From an uncultured beta proteobacterium (lineage in GTDB: Bacteria > Pseudomonadota > Gammaproteobacteria > Burkholderiales > SG8-39): a stretch of 64,000 nt of DNA. Positions 6,298 through 63,142 of the stretch are shown here, piece after piece. The notes under the pieces were generated by a model. It searched no databases and was not told where the DNA came from. It saw nothing but the letters and a program-made list of their open reading frames with translations. Position numbers and translations under genes: made by a program. The stretch lies in assembly GCA_903859155.1 (NCBI GenBank), contig CAIOLO010000019.1, forward strand, positions 74,472-138,471. The letters are read 5' to 3'. How positions within the stretch are numbered: position 1 is the stretch's first letter; every line of letters starts with the position of its first letter.

Positions 6298-6654
6298 TCA
6301 GATGGGGGTGAAAAGCGCGGCGTGCGGCCGGCTTTCCATCAGTTCTGCAAGCTTTTTGACGCTGCCGTAGTGGATGCAACTCGCCTGGCAATGCTTGACG
6401 CAGGACGGGGATTCCCCGTCGTTCGTCCGGGACTTGCACAGGTTGCAGTACATGGTGGGAAACGGCAGGTAATCGATGCGCAGGGACTTGTCGGGCCGCT
6501 CGGTGAGGAACTCGGTGAGTTTGAGGCCGCCGCGCCCTACCGGGTAATTATGTTCCTGCTTGCAGGCGATTTCGCAGGAATGGCAGCCGGTGCAGTATTC
6601 ATAATCGATCAGCAGGCCCATGCGTTTCACAGGTTTTTTGGCTGTGGCGTTCAT
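6298..6654 (-). CDS. Small 2x[4Fe-4S] ferredoxin-like subunit (mini DmsB-type)
   Basis: 118 aa. 'CTGCHSCEIAC' (CxxCxxCxxxC) plus 'CNLC..x11..CVKHCQASC'. ATGA overlap with the upstream Mo enzyme (6651-6654) and a 1-nt gap to the downstream UbiD gene. Confidence 0.7.
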   Translation of the reverse strand: MNATAKKPVKRMGLLIDYEYCTGCHSCEIACKQEHNYPVGRGGLKLTEFLTERPDKSLRIDYLPFPTMYCNLCKSRTNDGESPSCVKHCQASCIHYGSVKKLAELMESRPHAALFTPI

Positions 6655-8909
6655 ACGGTGGCTTCCTCATCCTTGACCTTGTAGACCTTGCACAACATCG
6701 TCTTGGTGGCCGCGCCGCCGAAGCCGGAAGTGCTCTGTTCGCCCATTGGGATGAGCTGGTTCACGTTGAGATCCCATACGCCGTAGAAATTGGGCGAGGT
6801 GCCGTCAGTCTCCGGCAGCCACCAGCCATGCAGGGCGTGGATCATCTGGCGGTGCATGGTCGGTGTGAGCCTGGCGCGGCGCTTGACCTTGCCGCGCACG
6901 CCTTCAATCCACACCATGTCGCCGTCCTTGATGCCCAGTGGCGCGGCGGTCTCGGGATGCATTTCCATTTCCGGAAAAGGCGACAGTTCGCGCAGCCAGG
7001 GAATCTGCCGGTGCTCGCTGTGGAAGAACGCGCTGTTGCGCCGGCCCGTGATCATGATCAGAGGGTATTTCTCCCAAATCTCGGGTGTGCTCAGCGGACT
7101 CTCGATGGGTTCGCGGTGATAGGGCAGCGGATCCAGGCCGTACTTCTCGTAGTTGGTGCAGTACAACTCGACCTTGCCGGTGTTGGTTCTGAAGCCGGGC
7201 TGGCCGTCGGGCCGCAACTGCCCCTTCTCATGGCGGCGGTATGGCACGGTGCCGGACTTGTGGTTCTTCGGCGCCATCGTCCAGGACTGCTCGGCAAGCT
7301 GCTCGAAAGTGAGACCCGTAGCCTTGAGCCGGAGTGTCATCAGCTCGCGCACGTTGGCCCAGGGGACGGCTTGGGGATTAAGGCGCTTGGCCAGTTCGAA
7401 GTTGATTTCCCAGTCGGAGCGGCACTCGCCGACTTGAATGACTTTCTGGATCGCGTTGATCGGCACGCCGGTGGTGAACACCGAATCCTTCTCCGGGAAA
7501 CTGCCCGCCGGAAGGATGATGTCGGCAATTGCCTGCGCCGTTGGCGTCATGAAGGTGTCGACCACCACGTTGAACTCGAGCTTGCGCACCGCTTCGTAGT
7601 GGCGCTTGGGGTCCTGGGCTGTGTTGGCGAGAAAATTGTTCGTCTGGCACCACAGGCCCTTGATCGGGTAAGGCTTCTGCGTTTCCATCTGCTCGAGCAC
7701 CATGTCCGAGAGGGCCCAGGCACGGAAGTTCTTGACCAGCGGAAAGCGGTCCGCGCCGATGCGTTTCTTGGTGAGGTTGGCAACGAACTCCTCGCCGTAG
7801 AGATCGATAACCTCCTGCGTCGAGTACGGGTAGATGGTGACCCCGAAAGGCGGGCGGGTGATGACGTTGCCGCCGGGGATGTCGATGTTGCCGGTAATGG
7901 CCCACAGGCAGTTGAGCGCGTGTATGGTGCTGGTCGCTTCGCGGTTGCTGTCAAGGGGCTGGCCGAAGCGCATCCCCGCCGGCTTGGCCGTGGCATACAT
8001 GCGCGCGGCCTTGACGATCTTTTCCGCCGGCACCCAGGTGATCGCGGCGGCCTTTTCCGGTGTGTATTCCTGCACGCGCTGCTTCAGTTCCTCGAAGCCG
8101 TGCGTCCACTTGGTGACGAACTCCTTGTCGTAGAGGTTCTCGTTGATGATGACGTTGAGCATGGCCAGCGCCAGCGCGCCGTCGGTGCCCGGGCGGATCT
8201 GCAGCCACAGCTCGGCGCGCGAGGCTTCCCAGGAGCACACCGGGTCGATGACGATGAGCTTGGTGCCGCGCTTCATCATGTCCACGGCCCAGTGGCCGGA
8301 GAAGTAATGGTCGGTGCAGCCGCTGCCCGCAAGATTGCGCGCCCAGGACACCAGCACCTCCGGTGCCTTCCATTCCGGATCGTCGTAGCGCTGCGGCGAG
8401 AACTGCGCGGCATCGGGGAAGGTGAAATCACCCATCACCATCGACATCGCCGCCAGGCGCGGCGTGAAACAGGAAATGCCCGACAGTCCGAACAGCGTCC
8501 AGTTCGGGCTGCCATAGGCATACGCCAGGAAAATGATGTAGCCGCCGGCGTCACGCCCGGTACCCTGCCCGAATACCATGGATTCAGGGCCGTATTTGTC
8601 GCGGATGGTGCGCATCTTGTCCTCGCAGGTATCGAGCGCCTCGTCCCAGGAGATGCGTGCCCACTTGCCTTCACCGCGCGCCCCGACCCGTTTCATCGGG
8701 TACTGCAGGCGATCCGGGTGATAGATGTACTGCGTGAGCGCCAGCGCTCGAGGGCACAAGCGTCCCTGCAAATAGGGATGATCCTCATCGCCCTCGCATT
8801 TGGTCAGCTTGCCATCCTTGATGGTCACTTTGACCCCGCAACCGCCGTGACAGCCCGGACCGGCGGACCAGGCCCCCATCCTGACAACGCGTTCGCCCAT
8901 TTCGCCCAT
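6651..8909 (-). CDS. Cytoplasmic molybdopterin (bis-MGD, DMSO reductase superfamily) enzyme, acetylene-hydratase-like
   Basis: The ORF runs to 9251, but ATG 8909 has the RBS GAGGGAGG 7 nt upstream and family homology starts there ('MGAWSAGPGCHGGCGVKV...LCPR' Fe-S domain). Other family features: 'LQYPMKRVG.RGEGKW.RISWDEAL', 'GTDGALALAMLNVIINENLYDKEFV', 'TPTAQ.ADIILP'. No twin-arginine signal. Confidence 0.8.
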   Translation of the reverse strand: MGEMGERVVRMGAWSAGPGCHGGCGVKVTIKDGKLTKCEGDEDHPYLQGRLCPRALALTQYIYHPDRLQYPMKRVGARGEGKWARISWDEALDTCEDKMRTIRDKYGPESMVFGQGTGRDAGGYIIFLAYAYGSPNWTLFGLSGISCFTPRLAAMSMVMGDFTFPDAAQFSPQRYDDPEWKAPEVLVSWARNLAGSGCTDHYFSGHWAVDMMKRGTKLIVIDPVCSWEASRAELWLQIRPGTDGALALAMLNVIINENLYDKEFVTKWTHGFEELKQRVQEYTPEKAAAITWVPAEKIVKAARMYATAKPAGMRFGQPLDSNREATSTIHALNCLWAITGNIDIPGGNVITRPPFGVTIYPYSTQEVIDLYGEEFVANLTKKRIGADRFPLVKNFRAWALSDMVLEQMETQKPYPIKGLWCQTNNFLANTAQDPKRHYEAVRKLEFNVVVDTFMTPTAQAIADIILPAGSFPEKDSVFTTGVPINAIQKVIQVGECRSDWEINFELAKRLNPQAVPWANVRELMTLRLKATGLTFEQLAEQSWTMAPKNHKSGTVPYRRHEKGQLRPDGQPGFRTNTGKVELYCTNYEKYGLDPLPYHREPIESPLSTPEIWEKYPLIMITGRRNSAFFHSEHRQIPWLRELSPFPEMEMHPETAAPLGIKDGDMVWIEGVRGKVKRRARLTPTMHRQMIHALHGWWLPETDGTSPNFYGVWDLNVNQLIPMGEQSTSGFGGAATKTMLCKVYKVKDEEATV

Positions 8910-8940
8910 AGCTTTGCCTCCCTCTGATATTGCCCTGCGG

Positions 8941-14900: not shown

Positions 14901-14943
14901 TGCCGTACAGGATCACGGAAAACTTGGTGGCCGCGAGACTCAT
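11905..14943 (-). CDS. Pyrogallol hydroxytransferase/resorcinol hydroxylase-like large (alpha, Mo-bis-MGD) subunit, paralog 1, with an SCP2-like N-terminal extension
   Basis: ORF 11905..14958. ATG 14943 has the RBS AAGAGG. The core is colinear with paralogs 2 and 3 ('[34 protein letters not shown]', '[16 protein letters not shown]', 'VFWSSDPE'). The extra ~140 aa at the N-terminus is absent from paralog 3. Confidence 0.8.
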
Positions 14944-14994
14944 GGTCGCCTCTTTCATCTGGGTTGAGCATAGGTGAGGAACTGATGCGCGCGA

Positions 14995-21629: not shown

Positions 21630-21753
21630 AATAGTCTCCTCGCGGTGCGGCCGATTCCGTCACCAGGGGGCGGAAGGCAGGTTGCAGTCTGCCACACCTG
21701 GCGACATGGCGTAGTTCAATGCCGGCGCGGCGAATAACCATTCTGGAGTGAAG

Positions 21754-35379: not shown

Positions 35380-35407
35380 AGATAAGTCGTTCAATGGAGG
35401 AGGCGAA

Positions 35408-40708: not shown

Positions 40709-40968
40709 GGTCCCTCCTTGCTTACGGATGGTTTGGTTGAATTGGCCTGCGCACGACAGGGCACAGCGGATATGCGACTGTCTGGGACAGTCGCGCTTAC
40801 GCTGCATTGGCGAATGATGGGCGCAAGCGGCGCGCAGGCATTGATCTTGGTCAAAGGCACGGAAATCGCCTTGCAGTGAATGCGAAGCTCGCGTGCGAGT
40901 GCGATACGTTTTTCTGAAACAGGCCCGCATTCACTGCTGCCGAATCTGCGGCGACCAGTCCTGCTAAT

Positions 40969-46500: not shown

Positions 46501-46600
46501 CGTACACGGCCAGTTGTGCGCGGTACTCGGGGTTGCGCCAGATGCCGAAGCGCATCAGCGCGTAAAGCCCGGTCAGCATGGTGCAGAATAATGCGTTCAC
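43586..46600 (-). CDS. Pyrogallol hydroxytransferase/resorcinol hydroxylase-like large (alpha) subunit, paralog 2, with an SCP2-like N-terminal extension
   Basis: 1004 aa (GTG 46600, GGAG RBS). Colinear with paralog 1, including the ~135-aa N-terminal extension ('GLHPNPDITLS...DGPDELVYHFTQAM'). Confidence 0.8.
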   Translation of the reverse strand: MNALFCTMLTGLYALMRFGIWRNPEYRAQLAVYDVIAQIRLIDSDSGRWFELRGGRVRSGAGLHPNPDITLSYETAKAAVKLMMPPIDWQAQVEAAKSFMLRVDGPDELVYHFTQAMLGTRRLGWTFGIPASNGERRYVSMTNGGPCFVYVKDGKVVRITPIDFDTTDAQPWTIEARGQSFTPPRKTTIAVHGLATKSMIYSPDRMLYPMKRVDFDPKGERHPENRGKSGYVRISWDEALDLVANEIKRVKSKHGPGGILFNHPSHHQWGNIGYWTSALYRFINAVGATRVNHNPDSWEGWYWGAMHHWGNSMRLGCAEPYGTVEDLLKEAEMVVFWSSDPEATSGIYAGYEGSLRRSWLKRLGIPTVHIEPYRNASASFMDGKWIAPRPGTDAALALAIAWVWIAEGLYDKSFVEKRTVGFDVWKDYINGVSDGVAKTPEWQFAETGVAAREVRALARAWGKKRTYLGAGGLGTGWGGACRGPTGVEWSRAMVCLTAMQGLGRPGVNFGNLQWGTPIDTSFYFPGYGEGGMSGDINFTASSISLYQRMPHFPSVNTHLQGVPRTKLPEAILEGHAEGYPRDSRSIEGQFFKIRYPAPAHSPVKMFYRYGGSNIGTMPDSKRYIDMYQSDKLEFVVNQSIWFEGEAKFADVILPACTNFERWDISEWSNVSGFMTNCQVQLNHRVITMQHKVIEPLGESKSDYTIFRELGHKLGLGVYFSEGMSELDWVQRMFLASDVSARMSWKEFLHKGYYVVPAPSERLRAKTAYRWFYEGRKKDLPEPHPLPSEYKENYLEGMQTPSGKFEFDCETLKRFDANDQERPPILKYRRSSESIETERASRYPLQMLTPHPRFTFHTQGDRKDSFLNDIADHRLLIDGHYYLIMRLHPSDAEKRGIEEGMLVRVFNELGSVICAARLTECARPGVVHGYESSATYEPLGEPGKSPDRGGMLNLITPKKSQFEKGDAMGNSNCLVEVEPWDGADDMHAKYLATKSAASAPRENRA

Positions 46601-46695: not shown

Positions 46696-47994
46696 CTATT
46701 TCATCGTTTCCGGCAGCCACAGCGCAATCTGCGGAAAAAACATCAGCAGGATGGTGGTGGCCAGGATGGCGAACATCAGCACGCTGGTGCCCTTGTACAC
46801 GCTGGTCAGGGGAACTTTGCCGGCAGCGCTTACGACGAACGCGATCATTCCCACGGGTGGGAACACCAGCCCCATCGATACCATCAGCATGGAGATGACG
46901 CCGAACCAGACCGCGTCGAAACCCAGAGAAGTGATCAAGGGGAACGTCAGTTGAAGGGTGAGCAGCAGCAGCGGGATTTCGTCCATGAACATGCTGATGA
47001 TGAAATACGCCACTACGATCGCGATAATCACCACCCAGCGGTTGAGGTTCATTGCGGCCACCACTTCCACGGCGTGCTGCGGAATGCGGCTGAGCGCCAT
47101 GAAATAGCCGAAGATGGTCGCGCCGATCAGGATAAGAAAGATCATGGCGGAGGTGGCGAGCGTGTCCTTCACCGCTTTCAGCGCGCTATCGAGGTTCAAT
47201 CTGCCGGTGACGAAGCCGATCAAACCGGCGGCAAAAGCGCCGATGGCCCCGGTCTCGGTCGGCGTGGCGACACCCGAATAGAGCAGGCCTATCACCACCA
47301 GGATCAGCAGCAGGCTTGGCCACACGCGCCAGGTTGATGCCCATTTTTCACTGGAGGACACCTTGGGTGTGCGCGGCGCATCCTGCGGTCTGAGTACCGC
47401 CCACCCGTAAATGATCACTGCAAGCAGAATGCCCACGACGATGCCCGGGATGATGCCGGCGATCAGCAGTTTGCCGATCGAGGTCTGAGTCGCGACGGCG
47501 TAGATCACCATCGCGATGCTGGGGGGGATCAGTATGTCGAGGGTTGCCCCGACGCCGATGGCGCCGGCGGCCAGCGCGTCGGAATAGCCGTGGCGCCGCA
47601 TCTCTGGCATGGCGATCTGTGACATGGCCGAAGCTGCCGCGGTACTCGCGCCAGACATGGCGCCGAAGATGCCGCAGGCGAATACCGTGGCGATGGCCAG
47701 GCCGCCGCGTATCGGCGACATCCAGCTTGCCGCCGCCGCATACAGGTCGCGGGCGAGGCCGCCACCGGCAGACAGGTAGGCCATCAGTATGAACGTCGGA
47801 ATCGTCGACAGCGAATAGTCGGCAACGCTGCTGAAAGGGGTCATGCTGACAATGCCCATCACCCGGGTGATGTCACCGCTGACAAGGAAGATGCCCAGCA
47901 TGCCGGAGACGGCAAGCGATACCGCTATGGGCACGCCGAACAGCATCAACGCCAGCAGCAGTATGAAGGGCATAAGGGCCATGGTGTTGCTCAC
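46696..47994 (-). CDS. TRAP transporter large permease (DctM family)
   Basis: 432 aa and highly hydrophobic. Follows the small permease with a 4-nt overlap (GTGA). Confidence 0.85.
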   Translation of the reverse strand: MSNTMALMPFILLLALMLFGVPIAVSLAVSGMLGIFLVSGDITRVMGIVSMTPFSSVADYSLSTIPTFILMAYLSAGGGLARDLYAAAASWMSPIRGGLAIATVFACGIFGAMSGASTAAASAMSQIAMPEMRRHGYSDALAAGAIGVGATLDILIPPSIAMVIYAVATQTSIGKLLIAGIIPGIVVGILLAVIIYGWAVLRPQDAPRTPKVSSSEKWASTWRVWPSLLLILVVIGLLYSGVATPTETGAIGAFAAGLIGFVTGRLNLDSALKAVKDTLATSAMIFLILIGATIFGYFMALSRIPQHAVEVVAAMNLNRWVVIIAIVVAYFIISMFMDEIPLLLLTLQLTFPLITSLGFDAVWFGVISMLMVSMGLVFPPVGMIAFVVSAAGKVPLTSVYKGTSVLMFAILATTILLMFFPQIALWLPETMK

Positions 47995-48497
47995 AAGGCG
48001 GCCTCTTCAGACTGGAACATGGGAGTCTCGCCGCTGTAGGCGTGGCGCAGGTCGATGAGCATCAGCAAACTGAGAAAACCAAGGCCCAGCGGCGCCAGCC
48101 AGTAGCCGGGAGCGAGCAGCCAGGGCAGGGTCGACAGTGTGGTGGCGTCGGCGGTGACCCGCATTGATTGCTGCGCCGTGGCATAGACCAGCAGCGCACA
48201 GAAGGCGAGCGACAACCCCTGCGCGAGCACATAGGTCCACGCCTTCACGGCGTCGGGCAGCATGTCCACGCAAAACGTGACACGAATGAATGCGCCGCCG
48301 CGGTAGGCCGCCGCGAAGCCTGGAAAGATCGCGGCTGCCATCAGGTACTTCTCGGTGATTTCGTAGGCGCCGGCAATGGGACTGTTGAGGAGATAGCGGC
48401 TCGCCGCATCCACCGTGCCCAGGCAGGTCATGGCGACAACCGCCACGACCCCCAGGTATGTCAGTCCGGTTTCAAAACGTTCGAGCCACTTGGTCAC
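47991..48497 (-). CDS. TRAP transporter small permease (DctQ family)
   Basis: 168 aa with four hydrophobic segments. Positioned between the P and M components. Confidence 0.75.
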   Translation of the reverse strand: MTKWLERFETGLTYLGVVAVVAMTCLGTVDAASRYLLNSPIAGAYEITEKYLMAAAIFPGFAAAYRGGAFIRVTFCVDMLPDAVKAWTYVLAQGLSLAFCALLVYATAQQSMRVTADATTLSTLPWLLAPGYWLAPLGLGFLSLLMLIDLRHAYSGETPMFQSEEAAL

Positions 48498-48503
48498 GCG
48501 TTT

Positions 48504-49541
48504 CTACCGCTGTTTGAGCAGTTCGAGCGCCGTATCGAGAATCTGTTGCGCCTCGGGCCGACCTTTGCTCTTCTGGGTATTCACCCATTCGCTCCACAGC
48601 GGGTCGCCCGCCACTTTGCGCCAGCGTGCCAGTTCATCGGGCGGCAGGGTGTAGCTGTCCATGGGGTGCTTGCCCTTCTTGATAAGCTCCAGCACCGCGC
48701 CCTCGGCCTCATCGAACCACTGCTTGCCGAATTCCTTGGAACCTTCCAGCCCGCTCACGCTCATGAGGCTGTCGCGGACTTCCTTGGGCAGGCTGTCCCA
48801 TTTCGGTTTGTTGGCGCACATGGAGAAATACACCGCCGAGAGCGGCACGCGTGTGTAGTATTTCAGCACTTCGTAGAGGCGGAAGCCGTGCAGCGCCTCC
48901 CAGGGTGCGGCCATGCCGTCGATGGTGCCTTTGTCCAGGGCCAGGTAGTTGTCTGGCATCGGAACGGCTGTCGGTACGGCGCCCAGCGCGCGCATCTGCG
49001 CGGTGGGTGGTCCGCCGGTCACGCGGATCTTCATGCCCTTCAGGTCCTCGATCGTTTTGACCTGTTTCTTGGTGGTGACCAGCATGTAGGGATTGCTGGT
49101 CCAGAGCATCAGGATCTGCGCATCCTTGTATTCGCGTTGGATTGAGGGAAACTTCTCGTACAGTTTCCAAAGCACTTCGCTGCCTTTTTCGGCAGTGTTA
49201 TAGGGCAGGAATGGCAGGGTGATCACGTCTGACAGCGGTGTCATCTCCGGCCAGTAACCGTGGAAGCACCAGCCGAAGTCGGCGACGCCGCTCTTGACTG
49301 CGTTCCACATGTCGGGGCCCTTGGCGAGCGTCTGGGTCGGGTAGACGTCGAACTTCACCCGTCCCTTGGTCGCCGCTTCGGCTTTTTTCACCCAGCCCAA
49401 CATGGCATGCTGGTGGCCCCAGGACGTGGGCGGGTTCTGGTCGGCGATGGTGAGTTTGATCGCCTGGGCGACCGATGCCTGAGGCGCGCACAGCGCTGCG
49501 GCGGAGACTGCTAGGATTGCTAGTGCATTGCGCGTGACCAT
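48504..49541 (-). CDS. TRAP transporter substrate-binding protein (DctP family)
   Basis: 345 aa with a signal peptide and a GGAGGA RBS. First gene of the P-Q-M order. Confidence 0.8.
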   Translation of the reverse strand: MVTRNALAILAVSAAALCAPQASVAQAIKLTIADQNPPTSWGHQHAMLGWVKKAEAATKGRVKFDVYPTQTLAKGPDMWNAVKSGVADFGWCFHGYWPEMTPLSDVITLPFLPYNTAEKGSEVLWKLYEKFPSIQREYKDAQILMLWTSNPYMLVTTKKQVKTIEDLKGMKIRVTGGPPTAQMRALGAVPTAVPMPDNYLALDKGTIDGMAAPWEALHGFRLYEVLKYYTRVPLSAVYFSMCANKPKWDSLPKEVRDSLMSVSGLEGSKEFGKQWFDEAEGAVLELIKKGKHPMDSYTLPPDELARWRKVAGDPLWSEWVNTQKSKGRPEAQQILDTALELLKQR

Positions 49542-49876: not shown

Positions 49877-51577
49877 ATGCCGGTCCAATACCCGACGCAG
49901 CTCGAGGAAGCTCGTCTGCCGCGCGGCGCGTTGCCCGATATCCGCTTTACGCTCGCCGCCTGCCAGTTTCCGGACACGCTGAATGTCGCCGATCACCTGC
50001 TCGAGCGCAATCTGTCGATTGCGCAGGCCGGGCGCAGCGCATTTTTCTGCGGCGCGCGCGCCATTACCTATGCCCAACTGAACGAATCGGTAAATCGCAT
50101 CGGCAGCGCGCTGCGCGGCCTCGATATCGGCCCCGGCGATCGCGTGGTGCTGCGTCTGCCCAATTCGATCGAGTTTGCGGTGTGTGCCCTGGCGCTGCAC
50201 CGGTTGGGCGCGGTGGTGGTGCCCACCAACGTGCTGCTGCGCGAGCCGATAGTCACCCATATAGTCAACCGCACCGCGGCAAAAGCGATCATCGTTCACC
50301 ATGAATTCCTCGACGCCGTGGAGCGCGGGCGTGCCGCGCAACCGGCACTTCAGTGGTGCATCGTGGCCGGTGGCGGGCCGTTGCCGGCGGGCGGCGCCGC
50401 TACCCTTTCCTACGAGCGTCTGCTCGAATCCGGCAGCCCCTCGCTGTCGAGCGCTGCGGTGCGGCGCGATGCGCTCGCCGCGATTTTTTTTACCTCAGGC
50501 ACCACCGGTTTGCCCAAAGGCTGCATGCATCTTGCCGGCACGCTGCTCGCCGGTGCGCATGCCGGCTTGGCCATGTATGACACCATCCGGCCGGACGACG
50601 TGGTCAGCGGCACGCCGCCGCTCGCCTTCACCTTCGGCTACGGTCATGTGATGCTGCTGCCGTTGCTGGCCGGGGTGCCGGGGGCGTTCATCGAGGGGCG
50701 CGCAACGCCGCAGAACGTGTTCCGCACCATCGAGCAGCACCGCGTGACGCTGTTTCACAGTGTTCCCTCGGCTTATATTCAGATGCTGGGCGCTGCAGAG
50801 GATGCCAACCGCCACGACTTGTCGTCGCTGCGCGCCACGCTCGCCGCCGGCGCGCCTACTCCACCGACAGTGTTTCGCTCCTGGCAGGAGCGCTTTGGCA
50901 CGCCCATCGCCAACGCCATGGGATCGAGCGAGTCGTTCGTGAGCATATTCAGCCGCTCGATGGCAGATCCGCCGCCGGGTGCCATGGGTCTGCCCCTGCC
51001 CGGGTGGGAGGTGCGTGTGCTGGACGAAAGCGGCCGCGACGCGGCGCCCGGCGTCATCGGCCGCCTTGCGGTTCGCGGACCGGCCGGTACGCTCTACTGG
51101 TGCGATCCGGAAAAGCAGGCCGAAGCGGTTATTGATGGCTGGAGCCTGACCGGTGATCTGGTGCGGCAGGATGGTGATGGCTGCTACTGGCACGAATGCC
51201 GCAACGATGACGTGATCAAGAGTCGCGGCTACCGCATTTCTCCCGGGGAGGTCGAGGACGCGTTGCTCGCGCACGCGGCGGTGCTGGAGCCGGCCGTGGT
51301 TGGCGCACCCGATGCGGTGCACGGCCAGAAAGTCAAGGCATTCATCACGCTGCACGGCGGTTACCAGGCTTCGGCTGCGCTGGCCGAGGAATTGCGCAGC
51401 TTTGCGCGCGAACGTCTTGCGCCCTACCAGGTGCCGGCCGAAATCGAATTCATCGACGCAATGCCCAAGACCGAGACCGGCAAGATCCTGCGCCGCGAAT
51501 TGCGCGACCGCACCCGCAGCGAGACCTCGATGCGCGAAGCCGTCCTGCAAACCCCGGTTGCTGCGGAGAATTCATGA
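49877..51577 (+). CDS. Aryl-CoA (benzoate-CoA ligase-like) AMP-dependent ligase
   Basis: 566 aa. 'FFTSGTTGLPKG' and C-terminal 'TETGKILRRELR'. The N-terminal region resembles benzoate/aminobenzoate-CoA ligases. The stop overlaps the next start (ATGA at 51574-51577). Confidence 0.75.
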   Translation: MPVQYPTQLEEARLPRGALPDIRFTLAACQFPDTLNVADHLLERNLSIAQAGRSAFFCGARAITYAQLNESVNRIGSALRGLDIGPGDRVVLRLPNSIEFAVCALALHRLGAVVVPTNVLLREPIVTHIVNRTAAKAIIVHHEFLDAVERGRAAQPALQWCIVAGGGPLPAGGAATLSYERLLESGSPSLSSAAVRRDALAAIFFTSGTTGLPKGCMHLAGTLLAGAHAGLAMYDTIRPDDVVSGTPPLAFTFGYGHVMLLPLLAGVPGAFIEGRATPQNVFRTIEQHRVTLFHSVPSAYIQMLGAAEDANRHDLSSLRATLAAGAPTPPTVFRSWQERFGTPIANAMGSSESFVSIFSRSMADPPPGAMGLPLPGWEVRVLDESGRDAAPGVIGRLAVRGPAGTLYWCDPEKQAEAVIDGWSLTGDLVRQDGDGCYWHECRNDDVIKSRGYRISPGEVEDALLAHAAVLEPAVVGAPDAVHGQKVKAFITLHGGYQASAALAEELRSFARERLAPYQVPAEIEFIDAMPKTETGKILRRELRDRTRSETSMREAVLQTPVAAENS

Positions 51578-52458
51578 GCCTGCCGCAATTCACCCACCTG
51601 CGTCCTGCGGACTTGCGCGAAGCCTCGGCCATGCTGCTCGAGCTGCCCGGTGAATCCCGGGTGCTGGCAGGCGGCACCGACATGCTTGTAAAGATGAAGC
51701 TGCGCCGGCAGGTGCCGCGCTACCTGATCAACTTGAAGAAGATCGCGGGACTGGAAGGGTTGCGCGACGAGCCCGGCGGCGGGCTGAGCATAGGCCCGCT
51801 CACCACCCTCGAGGCCTTGAAAACCTCGGTCGTGGTGCGGAAAAAATATCCGCTGTTGCACGACGCCGTCGCGCGCATGGGAACGCTGGAGATCCGCAAC
51901 TGCGGCACGGTGGGCGGCAACCTGTGCAATGCCTCGCCTGCCGCCGAGACCGTTCCGGCGCTGCTGCTGCTCGGGGCGACTCTCCACCTGGTGAGCCGCG
52001 ACACGCAGCGCAGCGTGGCGCTTGAAGCGTTCATCCAGGGGCCGGGCCGCACGCAGCTGGCGCGCGGCGAATTGCTCGCCACCATCCACGTTCCGGAGCC
52101 TGTACAGGGCAGTTTCGGCGCCTACGAAAAGCACAGCCTGCGGCGCATGGATCTCGCGGTTGTCGGCGCCGCCGTCCTCCTCGGCACGGAGGGTCCGCTA
52201 TGCCGCTGGGCGAAGATCGCGCTGAGTGCCGTCGGTCCGACTGCTCTGCGCGCGCACCATGCCGAGTCGCTGCTTGCGGGCCGCGAGGTGGACGAGGCGT
52301 GCATGCAGTCGGCTGCGCGCGCCGCCGCCGCCGAGGTTCAGCCGCAGGCGGATCTTCACGGCACCGTCGAACAGAAGCGCGAGATGGCCGCGGCGCTCAC
52401 CGCACGAGTCATCGCGCGCGCGCTAGAGCGCGCCGGTTTGCACCCGGGGAGGGCCTGA
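51574..52458 (+). CDS. CoxM/XdhB-like FAD-binding subunit of the xanthine oxidase/CO dehydrogenase family
   Basis: 294 aa. 'LAGGTDMLVKMK', 'CGTVGGNLCNASPAAE' and a CO_deh_flav_C-like tail. Confidence 0.8.
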   Translation: MSLPQFTHLRPADLREASAMLLELPGESRVLAGGTDMLVKMKLRRQVPRYLINLKKIAGLEGLRDEPGGGLSIGPLTTLEALKTSVVVRKKYPLLHDAVARMGTLEIRNCGTVGGNLCNASPAAETVPALLLLGATLHLVSRDTQRSVALEAFIQGPGRTQLARGELLATIHVPEPVQGSFGAYEKHSLRRMDLAVVGAAVLLGTEGPLCRWAKIALSAVGPTALRAHHAESLLAGREVDEACMQSAARAAAAEVQPQADLHGTVEQKREMAAALTARVIARALERAGLHPGRA

Positions 52459-52459
52459 T

Positions 52460-54895
52460 ATGGCCTGGCGCACGCACACGGCCGAACGCCCGGATGCCCC
52501 GGCGAAGCAGCGCGTCCAGATCACGGTCAACGGCCGGCGCCACCGGTTCACACTCGATCCGGGCACCACGCTCATAGAAGTCCTGCGCGACAAGCTGAAG
52601 TTCACCAATACCAAGGAAGGCTGCGGCGTGGGCGAATGCGGCACCTGCGCGGTGGTCATGAACGGCCGCGCGGTTAATTCCTGCCTGGTGCTGGCGCTCG
52701 ATGCGGACGGCGCGGACATCGTCACGCTCGAGGGCATGGCCACTTCGCTCGGACCACAGCCGGCGCAGGAATCGTTTGTCGACCAGGAGGCGCTGCATGC
52801 GCGCGTCGATGGCGGCGCGCCCGCGGAACGTCGCGAAACGCTGACCTTCTGCCACATTTGTGCGGGCCGCTGCGCGGTGCGCGTCACTTCGGCCGACGGT
52901 GTCATCGTCGACATGGCGCCCGAAACCGAGAGCGGCCTGCCCAATGAGCAGTGCGTGGTGCGCAAGGGCCGCATGTCCATCCCAGAAATCCACAGCCACC
53001 GCGACCGGCTGCTGTATCCGCAGAAGCGCATCGGCGAGCGCGGCGAAGGCAAGTGGCAGCGCATCTCCTGGGACGAGGCGCTCGATACCATCGCCGAGCG
53101 CTTTCGTGAGGTCAAGGAACAGCACGGTCCGGAGTATGTCGTCATGGGGCTGGGCGAGCCCAAGGGCATGGAGTTCGCCTTCGGCCAGCGCTTTGCCTCG
53201 GTGTTCGGCACGCCCAATGTCATCACGCCGGCATGGATGTGCGGCATCAGCTTCGGCCTGGCACAGGCCTACACGTTTGGCAAGGGCGCGGTGCCCGAGG
53301 AGGAGCACGATCCGGCGCTCATCGTGTGCTGGGGCATCAACCCTAATCACACCAGCGGCAGCCTGCGGCGCCAGACCTTCAGCCGCGACATGAAGGCGGG
53401 CGCGAAGCTCGTCACCATCGATCCCAAAAAGACCGACATGGCGGCGCTTGCCGATCTGTGGATCAAGCCGCGCCCGGGCGCCGATGGCGCGCTGGCGCTG
53501 GGGGTGCTCAAAGTCATCGTCGAGGAGCGCCTCTACGACAAGGCTTTCGTGGAGCGCTGGACCGTCGGATTCGCGGAACTGGAGGCGGAACTGCGCACCT
53601 TCACGCTGGAGGAGGTCGAGCGCATCACCTGGGTGCCCCGCGAGCAGGTGCGCAAATTTGCGCGCCTGTTTGGCGAATTGCGTCCGGCGTGCGTGCAATG
53701 GGGCAACGCGCTCGACCAGGGTTTGAACGGCTTCCAGTTGCACCGCACCATTTCGATCATCGTCGCCATCACCGGCAATCTCAACGTGCCCGGCGGCCTG
53801 GTATTTGTCGACTCGCGCCACAACCATGTTCGGCCGGGCAAGTTCTACATCCCTTCGCGGGAACTCAGAAATTCCGAGCGCGCCATCGGCGCGCGGGAGT
53901 ATCCGCTGTCGATCCGCTCGGCGGTGCTGCCTTCGCGACTGTTCGTCAAGGCGATGCTCGAGGGCGTTCCCTACCGGCCGAAGGCTGCGCTGTTCATCCT
54001 CACCAATCCGGTGGTCAGCTATCCGGGGTCGCAGAATGCCGTTGCCGCGCTCAAGAAGCTGGAATTCATCGCCGTGGCGGAGATTTTCATGACGCCGACG
54101 GCGGCGCTCGCAGACATCGTGCTGCCGGCGGCCACCGGCATGGAGCATGACGAGATCGGCTACTGGCCGGGCTGGTACGGAGAAGTGCGCGCGCATCCGA
54201 AAATTGTCGAGCCGCCGGGAGAGTGCCGCGGCGACACCGACATGTTGAATGACCTGGCGGGGCGATTGGGCCTGAAGCACTTCTGGAAAAAGGACGAAGA
54301 CGCGCTCGACGAGTGGCTCGGGCCGAGCGGCCTCAGCTTCGAGGACCTGAAGCGCCGCCGCACCCTGCTGCCGAAAATCAGCTATGGCTGGTCGGATTTT
54401 TCCACGCCGTCGGGCAAGGTCGAGATCCTTGCCGAACGGCTCACCGAGCACGGCGTCGCCACGCTGCCGCGCTGGCGCGATTTGTGCCAGTTGCCGGTCA
54501 TTCCCGCGGAGTACCCGCTGTTGATGACCAACGGCAAGGAAGAAGTGTTCATGAACACCGGCTTCAAGAACATCGGCGCACTGCGCGCGATGAAGCCCGA
54601 ACCAGTGGTGCAGATGAACCCGCAGACCGCACGCGCAGCCGGCCTGGCTGACGGCGACATGGTGAACATCGAGAGCAAGAGCGGCTGCATCCGGCAGCGC
54701 CTTCAGTTCGAGGCCAGCCTCGACCCGCGCGTGGTGATCGCCTCGTTCGGCTGGTGGTTCCCCGAGGACCGCGACGATAAATTCGGCTGGGACCGGGCCA
54801 ACATCAACATGCTCACCTGCGACGAAGGTCCGTACGACCCGGTATCCGGATGCATGGTGTTGAAAGGCGTTCCCTGCCGAGTGACACGGGCCTGA
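52460..54895 (+). CDS. Fusion protein: CoxS-type plant-like [2Fe-2S] domain + [4Fe-4S] domain + bis-MGD molybdopterin catalytic domain (acetylene-hydratase-like)
   Basis: 811 aa. C55-x4-C60-x2-C63-x11-C75 ('GCGVGECGTCAV...NSC'). The second CoxS cluster motif (QCGFCTPG) is absent. C131-x2-C134-x3-C138-x26-C165 follows. After that it is colinear with the 6651..8909 enzyme ('LLYPQKRIGERGEGKWQRISWDEAL','GADGALALGVLKVIVEERLYDKAFV','TPTAALADIVLP'). Confidence 0.8.
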   Translation: MAWRTHTAERPDAPAKQRVQITVNGRRHRFTLDPGTTLIEVLRDKLKFTNTKEGCGVGECGTCAVVMNGRAVNSCLVLALDADGADIVTLEGMATSLGPQPAQESFVDQEALHARVDGGAPAERRETLTFCHICAGRCAVRVTSADGVIVDMAPETESGLPNEQCVVRKGRMSIPEIHSHRDRLLYPQKRIGERGEGKWQRISWDEALDTIAERFREVKEQHGPEYVVMGLGEPKGMEFAFGQRFASVFGTPNVITPAWMCGISFGLAQAYTFGKGAVPEEEHDPALIVCWGINPNHTSGSLRRQTFSRDMKAGAKLVTIDPKKTDMAALADLWIKPRPGADGALALGVLKVIVEERLYDKAFVERWTVGFAELEAELRTFTLEEVERITWVPREQVRKFARLFGELRPACVQWGNALDQGLNGFQLHRTISIIVAITGNLNVPGGLVFVDSRHNHVRPGKFYIPSRELRNSERAIGAREYPLSIRSAVLPSRLFVKAMLEGVPYRPKAALFILTNPVVSYPGSQNAVAALKKLEFIAVAEIFMTPTAALADIVLPAATGMEHDEIGYWPGWYGEVRAHPKIVEPPGECRGDTDMLNDLAGRLGLKHFWKKDEDALDEWLGPSGLSFEDLKRRRTLLPKISYGWSDFSTPSGKVEILAERLTEHGVATLPRWRDLCQLPVIPAEYPLLMTNGKEEVFMNTGFKNIGALRAMKPEPVVQMNPQTARAAGLADGDMVNIESKSGCIRQRLQFEASLDPRVVIASFGWWFPEDRDDKFGWDRANINMLTCDEGPYDPVSGCMVLKGVPCRVTRA

Positions 54896-54920: not shown

Positions 54921-56204
54921 CTACTCCCGGCGCATCAGCGTCAGGGCCGGCAGTTCGTCTTCGACCACGTAGCCGAAGCGCTGCCGGAAATCCGCCGGGG
55001 ACAGGCCCGCGGCCTGCGCCAGCCGGGCGAGCTTCTGCGGATTGTCGAAATCGTCGCGCCGCAACCGCACCATGTAGCGCCGGGCGATCGCATAACGCGT
55101 TGAACCGATATCGACGGTGCGCACCCGCGTCCTTCCGGTTGCGGGGTCGAGCATGCTCGAGAACGGCACCGGCACGAATTGCCCGCCCTGCAAAGTAACC
55201 ATGGCGTTCGCGCCGCCTTCGATGAGAAATTTAGCCGCGCAGTAACCGAGGTCGCGCGTGTACTCGATATCGTAGGGTATCGGGTCCGCGCAGCGCAGTT
55301 CGTAGCCGATGTCTTTGGCGGTGATGGTGATCTTGAGGCCGAGGCCGGTGACGCGGTCCTGCACCACTTTTTTGATTCCGCGTCCCAGGTCGATCTCGGA
55401 GATGCGGATGTGGTCGTGCTCGTCGCGTTCGATGGCCCCCAGGCGATCGAGTTCCGCTTCGGGAATGCTCTCGGCCAGGCCCTCGGCGAGGATCGCCACG
55501 CCGTCGACGCGGCCCCCGGAGGCGCGCTTGACGATCGCGCCGGTCAGAATGTCGGCGATCTTGTCCAGGGTTGCCTTGCCGCCGGCAAACTCCTCCGGGA
55601 TGACCGCAAGCGTGGCCCCCGAGGCCTTGGCGATGCCCAGGGCGAGGTGGCCCGCCTTGCGGCCCATGGCGACGACAAAATACCAGCGACCCGCGGACTG
55701 CGCATCGACCATCAGGTTCTTCACCAGTGCGACACCCAGGTGCCGCGCTGTCTGGAATCCGAAGGTGTCGATGTGGGAGGGAAGCGCAAGATCGTTGTCG
55801 ATGGTCTTGGGCACATGCACCACGCGCAGCGCGGCTGCGGCCCGTTCGGCGACTTTCATCGCCGCGAAGGCCGTGTCGTCCCCGCCGATGGTGATCAGTT
55901 GTCCCACGCCGAGTTCGTGCAGGGACTTCACCACCTGATCCAGATGCCCGGATTGCTTGGTCGGATTCGCCCTTGATGTGCCCAGGCAGGTTCCGCCGAG
56001 GAAATGAATGCGGCTCACTTCGTCGATGTCCAGGCTGCGCGCGCAATCCAGCCGGCCCTGCATGAGTTCGGAGAATCCGTTGCGTATGCCAAGGACCTCG
56101 ATGCCCTGGAGCCGGGCGCGGATGGTGGCCGCGCTGATCACACTGTTGATTCCGGGCGCCGGTCCGCCGCCTACCAGGATCGCGAGCTTCTGGGGATTTG
56201 TCAT
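54921..56204 (-). CDS. 6-phosphofructokinase, probably PPi-dependent
   Basis: 427 aa. 'GGGPAPGIN', 'IGGDDT' (Asp rather than Gly), 'PKTIDND' (Lys rather than Gly) and 'MGRKAG'. Confidence 0.75.
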   Translation of the reverse strand: MTNPQKLAILVGGGPAPGINSVISAATIRARLQGIEVLGIRNGFSELMQGRLDCARSLDIDEVSRIHFLGGTCLGTSRANPTKQSGHLDQVVKSLHELGVGQLITIGGDDTAFAAMKVAERAAAALRVVHVPKTIDNDLALPSHIDTFGFQTARHLGVALVKNLMVDAQSAGRWYFVVAMGRKAGHLALGIAKASGATLAVIPEEFAGGKATLDKIADILTGAIVKRASGGRVDGVAILAEGLAESIPEAELDRLGAIERDEHDHIRISEIDLGRGIKKVVQDRVTGLGLKITITAKDIGYELRCADPIPYDIEYTRDLGYCAAKFLIEGGANAMVTLQGGQFVPVPFSSMLDPATGRTRVRTVDIGSTRYAIARRYMVRLRRDDFDNPQKLARLAQAAGLSPADFRQRFGYVVEDELPALTLMRRE

Positions 56205-56631: not shown

Positions 56632-57609
56632 ATGAAGCGGGCGTTGTTCATTCTGTTCGGAGCCGGCATGGCGTTTTGCGTCATGTCACCGCTTCCCGTG
56701 CTGTCGCAGGCTTATCCGACCAAACCGGTGCGGGTGGTCGTTCCCTATCCTCCTGGCGGCGCACCGGACCTTGTGACCAGGCTTATTGCGCAGAAAATCA
56801 GTGTTCCGCTGGGGCAGTCCGTGGTGGTGGAGAATCGCGCTGGCGCCAGCAGCATCATCGGTGCTGAAAATGTCGCGCGCTCGGCCCCGGATGGCTACTC
56901 CATATTGCTTGGGACCACCACCACGCATGTGACCAACATGCTGTTGATAAAAAAACTTCCCTACGATGCATTCAAGGACTTTACGCCCATCAGTGCGGTC
57001 CTGGAGCCGATTACGAGTCTGGTGGTGCATCCGTCCCTTCCCGCGAATTCCGTGCTGGAACTCATCGAATATGCCAGGCGCAATCCGGGAAAGATTTCCT
57101 ACAGCAGCACCGGCGTCGGGTCAGTATTCCACCTGGCGGGCGAAATTTTCAATCTGGTTACCGGGGTGGATATGGTCCATGTGCCCTACAAGGGGGCGGT
57201 GCCCGCGCTCGTGGACAATATCGCCGGTCGCATCGATGTCAGCTATGCGGCCTTGGGAAATGTATTGCCGCATGTGCGCGCCGGAAAATTGAAGATGCTC
57301 GCTGTGCTGGAGGGCACGCGCGTCGCCAGTTTGCCCGAGGTGCCGACGGTGAAGGAATCCGTCCCAAGCTTCGAGAAGCCCTCCGGCTGGTACGCTTTTT
57401 TCGGGCCCGCCGGGCTGCCCCTGCCGATCGTCTCCCGGCTTAATGCGGAGATCGTGAAGGTTCTCCATACGCCGGATGTTCGCTCCGGACTTGAGGCAAA
57501 TGCACAGCTTGTTATCGCTAGCAGCCCCGCAGAGTTGGCTGCACTGATGAAAAGAACCTACGAAACCTTTGTCAAAGCAATAGAGGTGGCCGGTCTCAAA
57601 CCGGAATAG
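56632..57609 (+). CDS. Bug/TctC-family substrate-binding protein (copy 9)
   Basis: 325 aa. 'AYPTKPVRVVVPYPPGGAPD'. Confidence 0.85.
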   Translation: MKRALFILFGAGMAFCVMSPLPVLSQAYPTKPVRVVVPYPPGGAPDLVTRLIAQKISVPLGQSVVVENRAGASSIIGAENVARSAPDGYSILLGTTTTHVTNMLLIKKLPYDAFKDFTPISAVLEPITSLVVHPSLPANSVLELIEYARRNPGKISYSSTGVGSVFHLAGEIFNLVTGVDMVHVPYKGAVPALVDNIAGRIDVSYAALGNVLPHVRAGKLKMLAVLEGTRVASLPEVPTVKESVPSFEKPSGWYAFFGPAGLPLPIVSRLNAEIVKVLHTPDVRSGLEANAQLVIASSPAELAALMKRTYETFVKAIEVAGLKPE

Positions 57610-59185: not shown

Positions 59186-60178
59186 CTAATCCAGCTTCAT
59201 CCCGATGCTTCGAATATCCCTGTCGTATCGCTCCGCCTCTGTTTCCATCAGGCGTCGAAATTCGGCAGGCGACTTTTCCGAGGACACGTAGTCGTTTCTT
59301 TGATAAAAGGTTTTCATGTCCGGCTCGCGCAATGCGGCGACAAGCGAGCGATTCAATCTGTCGACAATAGCCGCTGACACGCCCGCATGAGTGACAAAAC
59401 CTACCCACGAATCGGTAACGAAGCCCGGCGGCCCCCCCGCTTCCTCAACGGTTGGTACGTCCGGCGCATTGGGTGAGCGTGTCCTGGCTCCCACGGCAAT
59501 AATCTTCAACTCTCCGGCGGCCGCCAGCGGGCTTACCGCCAACAGGTCGGCATTTATCAGGTGAATCTGCCCGGTTCGCAGCGCGGTAATGGCGTCCACC
59601 TGAGCCTTGTAGGGTATGTAGGCGAGATCAAGGGACAATTGTTTCTTGAACATCTCGACCCCGAGCCGCTGGCCAAGCGAAACAACCGCCAGGCCATAAT
59701 TGAATTTGCCAGGATTGGCCTTTGCTACTTTGATCAGTTCGGCAACCGAACTGAAGGGCCCACCCGCCTTTACCGCTAGAAAAAAATTGTTCGAGAAGGC
59801 CAGCGCGACCGGCTCGAAATCTTTCCTGTAGTCGTACGGGAGGGGGCCGGCGAGGCTATCGAGGGCGCCGAGAATCGGATTGATCACCAGCAAAGAGTGT
59901 CCGTCTGCAGGCAATGCTTTGAACGCCTGAACGCCGATGACCCCGTTTGCGCCGGGTCTGTTTTCGACGACGACTTGCCGGCCCCAGGCAGTACTAAGTT
60001 TTTGTGCAAACATGCGGGATACGATGTCCATGCCGCCACCCTGGCCGGTGGTGACCACGATTCGCACCAGTCGGTTGGGGAAATCCTGCGCAAAGCAGGC
60101 GGAGGAGGTCCCCAAGATGCCAAGCGCAACCGGGACCAGGCATGCGAGCAATGCGCGATACGAGGTTTTAAGTGCCAT
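59186..60178 (-). CDS. Bug/TctC-family substrate-binding protein (copy 10)
   Basis: True start 'MALKTSYRALLA'. 'DFPNRLVRIVVTTGQGGGMD'. Confidence 0.85.
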   Translation of the reverse strand: MALKTSYRALLACLVPVALGILGTSSACFAQDFPNRLVRIVVTTGQGGGMDIVSRMFAQKLSTAWGRQVVVENRPGANGVIGVQAFKALPADGHSLLVINPILGALDSLAGPLPYDYRKDFEPVALAFSNNFFLAVKAGGPFSSVAELIKVAKANPGKFNYGLAVVSLGQRLGVEMFKKQLSLDLAYIPYKAQVDAITALRTGQIHLINADLLAVSPLAAAGELKIIAVGARTRSPNAPDVPTVEEAGGPPGFVTDSWVGFVTHAGVSAAIVDRLNRSLVAALREPDMKTFYQRNDYVSSEKSPAEFRRLMETEAERYDRDIRSIGMKLD

Positions 60179-60495
60179 GTTTCTGCCTTTCCTTTTTTGA
60201 TGCGAACCTGGCGCGCAAGAACCCGCGCTCAAGCTCGAGCGAAACCAAGCGTGTTGCCGATCTTAAAAAAACCTGCGCCGCTTTCAAATGAAATGAATGC
60301 TTTTTTCAATATTTTCAGTTGCGCTGCCGCGCCACCTCTGCAACGGGGTGCTTCTTACTTGCCTGATGATTGAAAGGCCTTTCGGTTGCATTAAGCGCTC
60401 GGACAGCGTTGGACATTTGATGCAGATCAAATAGGTGGTGGCCCCTTTAAATGCATAGTTGTCCTTTGAGTCGGTTGGGCCGGGCAAGACCCGGC

Positions 60496-63141: not shown

Positions 63142-63142
63142 C

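Follow-up and report, generated by a model that had tools for sequence, protein, structure and literature searches.

A predicted hybrid molybdenum or tungsten enzyme that joins xanthine-oxidase-type flavin and iron-sulfur modules to a DMSO-reductase-type catalytic subunit in uncultured bacteria

Catalytic subunits of the molybdenum enzyme superfamilies come with characteristic electron-transfer partners, a pattern from which a three-gene module on contig CAIOLO010000019.1 of an uncultured beta proteobacterium (assembly GCA_903859155.1) departs. The module was examined within a stretch of 64,000 nucleotides (positions 74,472 to 138,471 of the forward strand; hereafter the window), and comprises genes for an aryl-coenzyme A (CoA) ligase, a flavin adenine dinucleotide (FAD) subunit and a fusion protein (Table 1). 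Judged from sequence, the last two are predicted to form a conserved two-protein molybdenum or tungsten enzyme in which the xanthine oxidase (XO) family's flavin and first iron-sulfur module are joined to a catalytic subunit of the dimethyl sulfoxide (DMSO) reductase type, i.e. one that would carry bis(molybdopterin guanine dinucleotide) (bis-MGD). Such a hybrid breaks the rule that pairs each superfamily with its own partners, since the XO-type FAD and FAD-proximal [2Fe-2S] sites would be coupled to bis-MGD through the FS0 [4Fe-4S] cluster; phenol dehydroxylases of the XO and DMSO reductase types have been presented as distinct classes (PMC11760930; bioRxiv 2025.01.17.632430).

The three genes are closely packed. 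The stop codon of the ligase gene and the start codon of the FAD gene overlap as ATGA, and the TGA of the FAD gene ends at 52458, one base separating it from the fusion ATG at 52460, which has GGAGG 8 nt on its 5' side; a scan of the operon for promoters and terminators returned nothing above chance level. The FAD gene product, described in the original prediction as a standard subunit of the CoxM/XdhB type, matches Pfam FAD_binding_5 (150.4 bits) and CO_deh_flav_C (71.6 bits) and aligns end to end with CutM (PDB 1ffv_C, 3.2e-42), CoxM (1n5w_C) and QorM, so that the description holds. HcrB (1rm6_B) and PaoB, which carry a [4Fe-4S] insert, align only over its first ~120 residues (5-120 in the case of 1rm6_B), and the TIGR03195 model scores 104.8 bits against a cutoff of 404.55. 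This partial alignment, together with the presence of only four scattered cysteines (110, 118, 210 and 243), rules out an iron-sulfur cluster of the HcrB or PaoB kind in this subunit.

The fusion protein opens with a plant-ferredoxin-type domain. Pfam places Fer2 at residues 21-75, and residues ~15-113 align to residues ~2-107 of XO-family small subunits, both among NCBIfam models (glyceraldehyde dehydrogenase gamma, 97 bits; XdhC, 89 bits; also PaoA) and among PDB entries (5y6q_A, 4zoh_C, PaoA, CutS and CoxS). Coordinates, cysteines and assignments are thus in agreement with the earlier description of a gene that begins 1 nt past the FAD stop codon and opens with a CoxS-type domain. Cysteines within residues 1-180 are exactly 55, 60, 63 and 75 followed by 131, 134, 138 and 165; none lies between 75 and 131 and Pfam gives no Fer2_2 match, so that the fusion has no second [2Fe-2S] site and a hidden one is ruled out. 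The original prediction placed the switch between the two parentages where a CoxS protein would begin its QCGFC domain, and the alignment bears this out: the linker retains P-x-Q-E-x-F (the 'HPxQExF' helix), a vestige of the first helix in the helical domain of CoxS, whilst the QCGFC cysteines are gone. This linker (~25 residues) is variable in sequence and modelled with low confidence. Across a 100-sequence alignment with a mean column identity of 65%, by comparison, all eight cluster cysteines and Cys261 are invariant. In the structures of carbon monoxide dehydrogenase, xanthine dehydrogenase and 4-hydroxybenzoyl-CoA reductase (hereafter 4-HBCR), FAD neighbours the N-terminal plant-type cluster of the small subunit, and the molybdenum cofactor neighbours the helical-domain cluster; because the N-terminal cluster is FAD-proximal in these enzymes, the fusion would keep the FAD-facing half and put the FS0 cluster of the bis-MGD subunit in the place of the cofactor-facing half.

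Beyond the linker, Cys131, Cys134, Cys138 and Cys165 align to the cluster cysteines of acetylene hydratase. The Pfam Molybdop_Fe4S4 model scores 17.4 bits at residues 127-157, below its cutoff of 22.7, and is the one member of the anticipated domain set (Fer2 without Fer2_2, the two body domains, FAD_binding_5 and CO_deh_flav_C) for which Pfam stays below cutoff; the body matches Molybdopterin (PF00384) with 155.2 bits (cutoff 24) and Molydop_binding (PF01568) with 71.3 bits (cutoff 26.8). The proposed succession of FS0 motif and molybdopterin body stands accordingly, with exact positions, invariant cysteines and recognisable body domains. Acetylene hydratase (2e7z) is the best PDB match of the body by sequence (E = 6.5e-88) and also by Foldseek (TM 0.86, root-mean-square deviation (rmsd) 2.8 Å and 28% structure-based identity over residues 130-803), the AlphaFold2 (AF2) model of the fusion having a predicted local distance difference test score (pLDDT) of 85.4 and a predicted TM-score (pTM) of 0.88, with low-confidence segments at 1-12, 52-59 and 97-118. 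Cys261 aligns to the cysteine that ligates tungsten in acetylene hydratase ('YMCIGN' versus 'WMCGIS'). By its domains, FS0 motif and ligand position, the fusion belongs to the Mo/W-bis-MGD (DMSO reductase) superfamily, the cofactor itself being predicted. Acetylene hydratase has its catalytic Asp13 right behind the second FS0 cysteine (CQSCDI), a position occupied by Ala in the window fusion (CHICAG) and by Ala, Cys or Pro in the family as a whole. Because the catalytic Asp is replaced and redox partners are present, as a fused [2Fe-2S] domain and an adjacent FAD gene, the fusion is not a hydratase of the acetylene hydratase type, and this function was ruled out.

The body had also been called colinear with another enzyme of the window at 6651..8909, which is confirmed at 33% identity over residues 134-785 (E = 2e-97); that gene lies on the minus strand, a point left unstated. 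This second FS0-containing bis-MGD enzyme (6651-9251, minus strand) is encoded between a UbiD gene and a major facilitator superfamily (MFS) transporter gene, and since its longest open reading frame (ORF) has ~125 residues before the FS0 motif, its true start codon is uncertain.

The architecture recurs widely. A homolog search over 5.8 billion proteins returned, among the matches listed, at least 120 clusters of 52-91% identity and 86-100% coverage, nearly all full length and of the same Pfam architecture. More than 100 full-length fused homologs, all at least 52% identical, are found in metagenome-assembled genomes (MAGs) of at least eight phyla, with representatives in Betaproteobacteria, Actinomycetota, Chloroflexota, Thermincola, Desulfobacterota, Alphaproteobacteria and Binatia, the MAGs coming from soil, groundwater, oxygen-minimum zones and anaerobic digesters. 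Relatives are encoded in 200 stretches of GTDB species representatives; the locus counts given here come from the best 80, probed with the window proteins. About 45 of these loci are fused and have an MGD body of 50% identity or more; another 40 or so are unfused, with 38-48% identity, an alignment that starts at query residue ~129 and neither Fer2 nor a FAD gene nearby. An FAD gene lies directly upstream of the fusion gene in 38 fused loci, so that the search for the same fusion and gene pair in other genomes was successful on both counts, and a CoA ligase gene precedes the FAD gene in 22 (30 when the whole locus is counted). The more the MGD body diverges, the more both partners do (r = 0.90 for the FAD subunit, r = 0.96 for the ligase). 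A scan of the junction, in which the first 260 residues were compared by HMMER with 1.84 billion 50%-identity representatives, gave 17 matches at E <= 1e-30, several of them junction-spanning fragments; the 150 matches listed include no second, distant fused lineage, the others fitting either the CoxS-like or the MGD part and never both. The fusion therefore forms a single, tight clade that extends over at least eight phyla.

Full-text searches of the literature brought up no description of the hybrid architecture, nor any characterised enzyme of such composition, in line with the original prediction; a 2026 paper on benzene that came up is about an unrelated flavoprotein. A functional parallel among XO-family enzymes may be HcrABC of Thauera aromatica (PDB 1rm6), which is likewise cytoplasmic, has a CoxM-type FAD subunit and a CoxS-type [2Fe-2S] site, and acts on an aryl-CoA (predicted for the hybrid) that is supplied by an enzyme of the benzoate-CoA ligase family; its genes stand beside those for phenylphosphate synthase and carboxylase and benzoyl-CoA reductase, and in Actinomycetota the module has a matching setting, beside phenylphosphate synthase/carboxylase-like and benzoyl-CoA-reductase-like genes. 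Unlike HcrABC, the hybrid has a bis-MGD subunit with FS0 in place of the CoxL-type subunit with molybdopterin cytosine dinucleotide (MCD), and it lacks both the helical [2Fe-2S] domain and HcrB's [4Fe-4S] insert. With no CoxL subunit and no Fer2_2, it does not qualify as an XO-family holoenzyme, nor, with no HcrB insert, as a 4-HBCR. The statement that the window holds no intact CoxL-type partner proved correct: no such gene lies in or beside the operon, and the only copy in the window, at 24282-25839 (plus strand) directly downstream of a UbiD gene, is decayed into three ORF fragments in different frames with partial Ald_Xan_dh_C, MoCoBD_1 and MoCoBD_2 matches. Elsewhere, a Chloroflexi MAG has a CoxL-type gene (L003:3117-5420) without adjacent CoxS or CoxM genes of its own directly upstream of the ligase-FAD-fusion module, and three loci (L007, L014 and L020) carry an entire XO-type operon a few kb away from the hybrid module.

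Urolithin C dehydroxylase of Enterocloster (UcdCFO/UcdhABC), also of the XO family, resembles the hybrid in pairing a CoxM-like FAD subunit and a 2Fe-2S subunit with a molybdenum site (PMC11760930; bioRxiv 2025.01.17.632430), and in UcdCFO the plain CoxM-like FAD subunit and the 2Fe-2S subunit drive phenol dehydroxylation from NAD(P)H (PMC11760930). It differs from the hybrid in its MCD-containing CoxL-type subunit, its two [2Fe-2S] clusters, the lack of FS0 and a substrate that is not a CoA ester.

On the side of the catalytic body, acetylene hydratase of Pelobacter acetylenicus (2e7z) shares with the hybrid the FS0 cysteines, the cysteine metal ligand and a cytoplasmic location, but is monomeric and non-redox, has Asp13 and has no FAD or [2Fe-2S] partner. 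Acetylene hydratase and the bis-MGD catechol dehydroxylases are each other's closest characterised relatives (PMC7028382). The catechol dehydroxylases of gut bacteria (Dadh, Cldh, Hcdh and Dodh) resemble the hybrid in that acetylene hydratase is also the closest characterised relative of its body; compared by description only, they differ in using a [4Fe-4S] partner with or without a membrane anchor, in being exported in many cases by the twin-arginine translocation (Tat) route and in acting on free catechols. The hybrid's fusion has no signal peptide, its N-terminus being the ferredoxin domain, and Pfam finds no Fer4 partner in its operon, where the partner is the CoxM-type FAD subunit.

A plant-type [2Fe-2S] domain fused N-terminally to a bis-MGD subunit and served by a flavoprotein is also found in the alpha subunit of NAD-dependent formate dehydrogenase (FDH; FdsA/FdhA; 6tg9, 7vw6) and in NuoG. 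In these proteins, unlike in the hybrid, the ferredoxin domain is of another type, several extra [4Fe-4S] domains are present and the partner is an FMN protein of the NuoF type. No extra [4Fe-4S] domain was matched by Pfam ahead of FS0 in the fusion, where residues 1-180 hold only 4 + 4 cysteines, and TIGR01591 reaches 293.7 bits against a cutoff of 666, over residues 129-767 only. The Foldseek superposition on FDH alpha covers ~970 columns including the N-terminal domain at an rmsd of ~12 Å, which indicates a different domain arrangement; with NCBIfam and PDB assigning the domain to XO small subunits, a ferredoxin domain of the NuoG/FdsA type is ruled out. Because it lacks the extra [4Fe-4S] domains and has a ferredoxin of the XO small-subunit type, the hybrid is not an enzyme of the NAD-dependent FDH/NuoG type. 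NADH-dependent assimilatory nitrate reductases and NAD-dependent FDHs already show the succession flavin, [2Fe-2S], [4Fe-4S], bis-MGD, which they build from unrelated flavin and ferredoxin modules; what is new here is the recruitment of XO-family modules to a bis-MGD enzyme, the abstract wire itself being not unprecedented.

Further evidence on the catalytic subunit comes from an unfused sister clade in Syntrophales, Acidobacteriota and Desulfobacterota MAGs (L045-L052), with bodies 45-48% identical to that of the fusion and the same FS0 motif. At exactly the Cys261 position, four sister genes belonging to three MAGs read TGA in frame ('TPAWMCGIS' versus 'TPGNYUGVP', with U for predicted selenocysteine (Sec)), and a conserved 7-bp hairpin with a GGUG loop starts 13 nt 3' of this codon; tested as a selenocysteine insertion sequence (SECIS) in these sister genes, the hairpin is there, but the overall energy of folding does not improve on that of shuffles and covariation is absent. 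The sisters resemble the fusion in their bis-MGD body, FS0 motif, upstream CoA ligase and TRAP (tripartite ATP-independent periplasmic) transporter, and differ in having no Fer2 domain, no FAD subunit and, instead, an HdrD/GlcF-like partner (a Fer4 dicluster and two CCG domains) encoded upstream of the Sec enzymes (L048:8656-9939; also L050:8621-9904). The Sec enzymes are also preceded by a CoA ligase and a TetR regulator and followed by a TRAP transporter and a protein with old-yellow-enzyme-like Oxidored_FMN and Pyr_redox_2 domains, and in L048 the TRAP system accompanies both ligase and molybdenum enzyme. Because Sec is predicted at the same position in the sister enzymes, Cys261 is taken to be the metal ligand, and the Sec residue argues that the clade may do redox chemistry. 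Since the sisters carry Sec at this position and use an HdrD-like partner, the catalytic subunit would be redox-active and its electron modules would have been swapped, with the same kind of catalytic subunit predicted to be served by at least two unrelated electron-transfer modules.

As regards the substrate, the ligase scores 343.9 bits against the TIGR02262 benzoate-CoA ligase family (cutoff 375, passed by orthologous ligases of two other fused subclades), and its nearest solved structures are anthranilate-CoA ligase 4wv3 (3.8e-87) and benzoate-CoA ligase 2v7b (8e-76). Co-transcription with a ligase of this family points to an aryl-CoA substrate, and the hybrid most likely acts on aromatic acyl-CoA compounds in the oxygen-free breakdown of phenolics. 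From its position, the TRAP transporter divergent to the module is the likely uptake system for a carboxylate substrate. The ligase would turn the imported aromatic carboxylate into its CoA thioester, and a cytoplasmic two-subunit oxidoreductase with Mo- or W-bis-MGD would act on the resulting aryl-CoA, with electrons passing from the CoxM-type FAD to the plant-type [2Fe-2S] cluster, on to the FS0 [4Fe-4S] cluster and then to Mo or W ligated by Cys261; FAD would be the entry point for reducing equivalents, with NAD(P)H as their probable source. We infer both this wire, the natural reading of domain identity and strict gene pairing, and the direction in which electrons would flow along it.

For the reaction itself we lean, with slightly less than even confidence, towards the reductive removal of a ring substituent, the model case being conversion of 4-hydroxybenzoyl-CoA (or a related hydroxy- or amino-benzoyl-CoA) to benzoyl-CoA, which would make the hybrid a functional analogue of 4-HBCR. 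A reductive dehydroxylase is favoured by the occurrence of the family in syntrophic and fermentative lineages (Syntrophorhabdales, Syntrophobacterales, Dehalococcoidia and Thermincola), in which a reduction is easier to place than an oxidation. The kinship of acetylene hydratase with the bis-MGD catechol dehydroxylases (PMC7028382) and the NAD(P)H-driven phenol dehydroxylation by UcdCFO (PMC11760930) count on the same side. Of 43 fused loci, 19 have a UbiD-family gene no more than 10 kb away, and in a Desulfobacterales MAG the genes for an MFS transporter, the ligase, the FAD subunit, the fusion and UbiD make up a compact operon. The module of Gaiellales and other Actinomycetota is flanked by genes for a PPDK_N protein of 320 residues and a PEP-utilizers protein of 562 residues, which is the layout of phenylphosphate synthase; the UbiD protein encoded beside it there reaches 457 bits with the phenylphosphate carboxylase beta model (cutoff 469), and one Actinomycetota contig also has a BcrAD_BadFG gene and two HGD-D genes, whose products are of the type of class-I benzoyl-CoA reductases or dehydratases. 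As read from gene content, the Actinomycetota setting is that of the canonical anaerobic phenol route, with the hybrid enzyme in the position expected for 4-HBCR. A more specific proposal, which we regard as possible rather than probable, is that the hybrid is the first recognised one between the XO and DMSO reductase superfamilies, a NAD(P)H-linked bis-MGD dehydroxylase or deaminase of the hydroxybenzoyl-CoA type that replaces 4-HBCR in the anaerobic phenol/hydroxybenzoate funnel of many uncultured Actinomycetota, Chloroflexota, Desulfobacterota and Proteobacteria.

Several observations weigh against a reductive aryl-CoA enzyme of this kind. CutM, CoxM and QorM, the proteins that the FAD subunit most resembles, are parts of enzymes run oxidatively toward respiratory acceptors, and the subunit is without the [4Fe-4S] insert that serves the inverted electron flow, driven by ferredoxin, in 4-HBCR; HcrC is not specifically closest to the Fer2 domain, nor HcrB to the FAD subunit. 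No pps, ppc or bcr genes stand next to the module in the window, where the divergent TRAP transporter is the sole adjacent functional clue. Flanking genes vary by lineage (enoyl-CoA hydratase, BKACE, aldolase, Amidohydro_2, thiolase and 3HCDH), so that the substrate may differ between subclades or be heteroaromatic. Two fused loci, L022 (125-3842) and L029 (3638-7585), have the ligase gene followed directly by the fusion gene and no adjacent FAD gene; the MAG with L029 holds two further copies with an FAD gene (L019 and L024), and the FAD subunit might be shared between copies there. The placement of Fer2 relative to FS0 in the AF2 monomer model is at best tentative, given the low-confidence linker, and the family is known from sequences, all of the best 80 GTDB loci being from MAGs with no cultured host among them.

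The main rival is the same architecture run oxidatively, as a water-dependent aryl- or heteroaryl-CoA hydroxylase like 2-furoyl-CoA dehydrogenase or nicotinate dehydrogenase, in which electrons would pass from the substrate through Mo or W, FS0 and [2Fe-2S] to FAD and on to NAD+, quinone or another acceptor; we consider both this reaction and this path rather unlikely. The kinship of the FAD subunit with those of oxidative hydroxylases and dehydrogenases (CutM, CoxM and QorM) and its missing HcrB-type insert count in its favour, as do the enoyl-CoA hydratase, Amidohydro_2, BKACE and aldolase genes of some loci, whose products could process a hydroxylated, ring-opened product, and the several resorcinol-hydroxylase/transhydroxylase-like molybdenum enzymes of the host, which suggest an oxidative anaerobic strategy. 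The hydroxymethylfurfural/furoate pathway (HmfABCDE/HmfFG), too, combines UbiD, a CoA ligase and a molybdenum enzyme with FAD and 2Fe-2S subunits. Syntrophs and fermenters, however, have no obvious acceptor for an oxidative hydroxylation, the module adjoins phenylphosphate-synthase-, phenylphosphate-carboxylase- and benzoyl-CoA-reductase-like genes, and among characterised enzymes the body's clade is nearest to reductive dehydroxylases and a hydratase rather than to hydroxylases.

It is more doubtful still that the same wire serves a substrate other than the ligase's CoA ester, such as a free phenolic acid, an inorganic oxyanion, an aldehyde or another small molecule, with the ligase a mere neighbour. 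Two fused loci and Thermincola have no ligase immediately upstream, and assimilatory nitrate reductases share the broad logic; the NasC-like NCBIfam score, however, is a weak 197 bits against a cutoff of 1100, all FDH, Nas and Psr models stay far below their cutoffs, the ligase diverges together with the molybdenum enzyme body (the r = 0.96 given above) and is translationally coupled in the window, and a ligase lies upstream even in the unfused Sec-containing sisters. That the fusion is an artefact of sequencing, assembly or gene calling, or a decaying pseudogene, is effectively refuted: one homolog (P0089) does appear split, into a 139-residue Fer2 ORF and a 705-residue MGD ORF, but the ligase on the same frameshift-riddled contig is itself broken into three ORFs, which marks this split as a frameshift artefact, and the abundance of independent full-length fused homologs with nine invariant key cysteines and the confident AF2 model exclude the artefact that the original prediction had named as a risk.

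If the wire works as inferred, it would show the modularity of redox chains and offer a design, taken from nature, by which a soluble flavin site could power bis-MGD chemistry; with the Sec-containing, HdrD-linked sisters, one aryl-CoA-processing catalytic subunit would be plugged into at least two unrelated electron-input modules. Given its wide spread and its link to aryl-CoA ligases and UbiD (de)carboxylases, the hybrid family may be a missing step in the anaerobic degradation of phenolics or other aromatic acids by uncultured organisms, and its substrate could be that of one of the dehydroxylation or deamination activities on gentisyl-, salicylyl- or 4-aminobenzoyl-CoA, for which, to our knowledge, enzymes are still not firmly assigned.

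Table 1. Coordinates of the module, its domains and other features. Positions are those of the window, except for the sister genes, which are given in the numbering of their own loci.
Feature	Position	Strand	Basis
Aryl-CoA ligase (AMP-forming, benzoate-CoA-ligase-like), gene 1 of the three-gene module	49877..51577	+	Pfam AMP-binding + AMP-binding_C
CoxM/CutM-type FAD subunit, 294 aa, no extra Fe-S cluster	51574..52458	+	FAD_binding_5 + CO_deh_flav_C
Fusion protein, 811 aa: CoxS-type [2Fe-2S], linker, FS0 [4Fe-4S], acetylene-hydratase-like Mo/W-bis-MGD body (predicted cofactors)	52460..54895	+	
Plant-ferredoxin-type [2Fe-2S] domain, aa ~16-96, Cys55, 60, 63, 75	52505..52747	+	Pfam Fer2, NCBIfam, PDB
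Linker, aa ~97-125	52748..52834	+	Alignment, no Cys, AF2 pLDDT <50 at residues 97-118
FS0 [4Fe-4S] domain, aa ~126-180, Cys131, 134, 138, 165, invariant Lys169	52835..52999	+	Alignment to acetylene hydratase
bis-MGD-binding body, Molybdopterin aa 183-601, Molydop_binding aa 687-804	53006..54871	+	Pfam, PDB, Foldseek
Cys261 codon, presumed Mo/W ligand	53240..53242	+	Alignment to acetylene hydratase; Sec in sister genes
TRAP transporter: DctM 46696-47994, DctQ 47991-48497, DctP 48504-49541	46696..49541	-	Pfam
UbiD-family (de)carboxylase genes, four	2179-3609 (+), 4884-6296 (-), 22747-24285 (+), 27023-28510 (-)		
Pyrogallol-transhydroxylase/resorcinol-hydroxylase-like bis-MGD large subunits, AhtL-like first domain	11905-14958 (-), 43586-46600 (-), 60544-63141 (+)		
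Fer4_11 + CarboxypepD_reg beta subunits beside two of the transhydroxylase-like large subunits	42741-43589 (-), 63077-63979 (+)		
TctC/Bug-family periplasmic binding-protein genes, 1-5 of ten	2-982, 16047-17003, 20661-21629, 21748-22716, 25978-26973		
TctC/Bug-family periplasmic binding-protein genes, 6-10 of ten	29825-30802, 35162-36376, 39731-40930, 56632-57609, 59186-60232		
Sec-bearing sister genes, 45-46% identical to fusion body	L048:9995-12112, L048:12121-14295, L049:2342-4441, L050:9977-12112		

Downstream of the module, a phosphofructokinase-family gene (54921-56204, minus strand) converges on the operon end, 25 nt from the fusion stop codon, with no evident functional link. Four UbiD genes in 64 kb are unusually dense and consistent with a catabolic island for aromatic acids or phenolics. 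Ten TctC/Bug genes are typical of Burkholderiales, which fits the closest homologs being from Betaproteobacteria/Burkholderiales MAGs.

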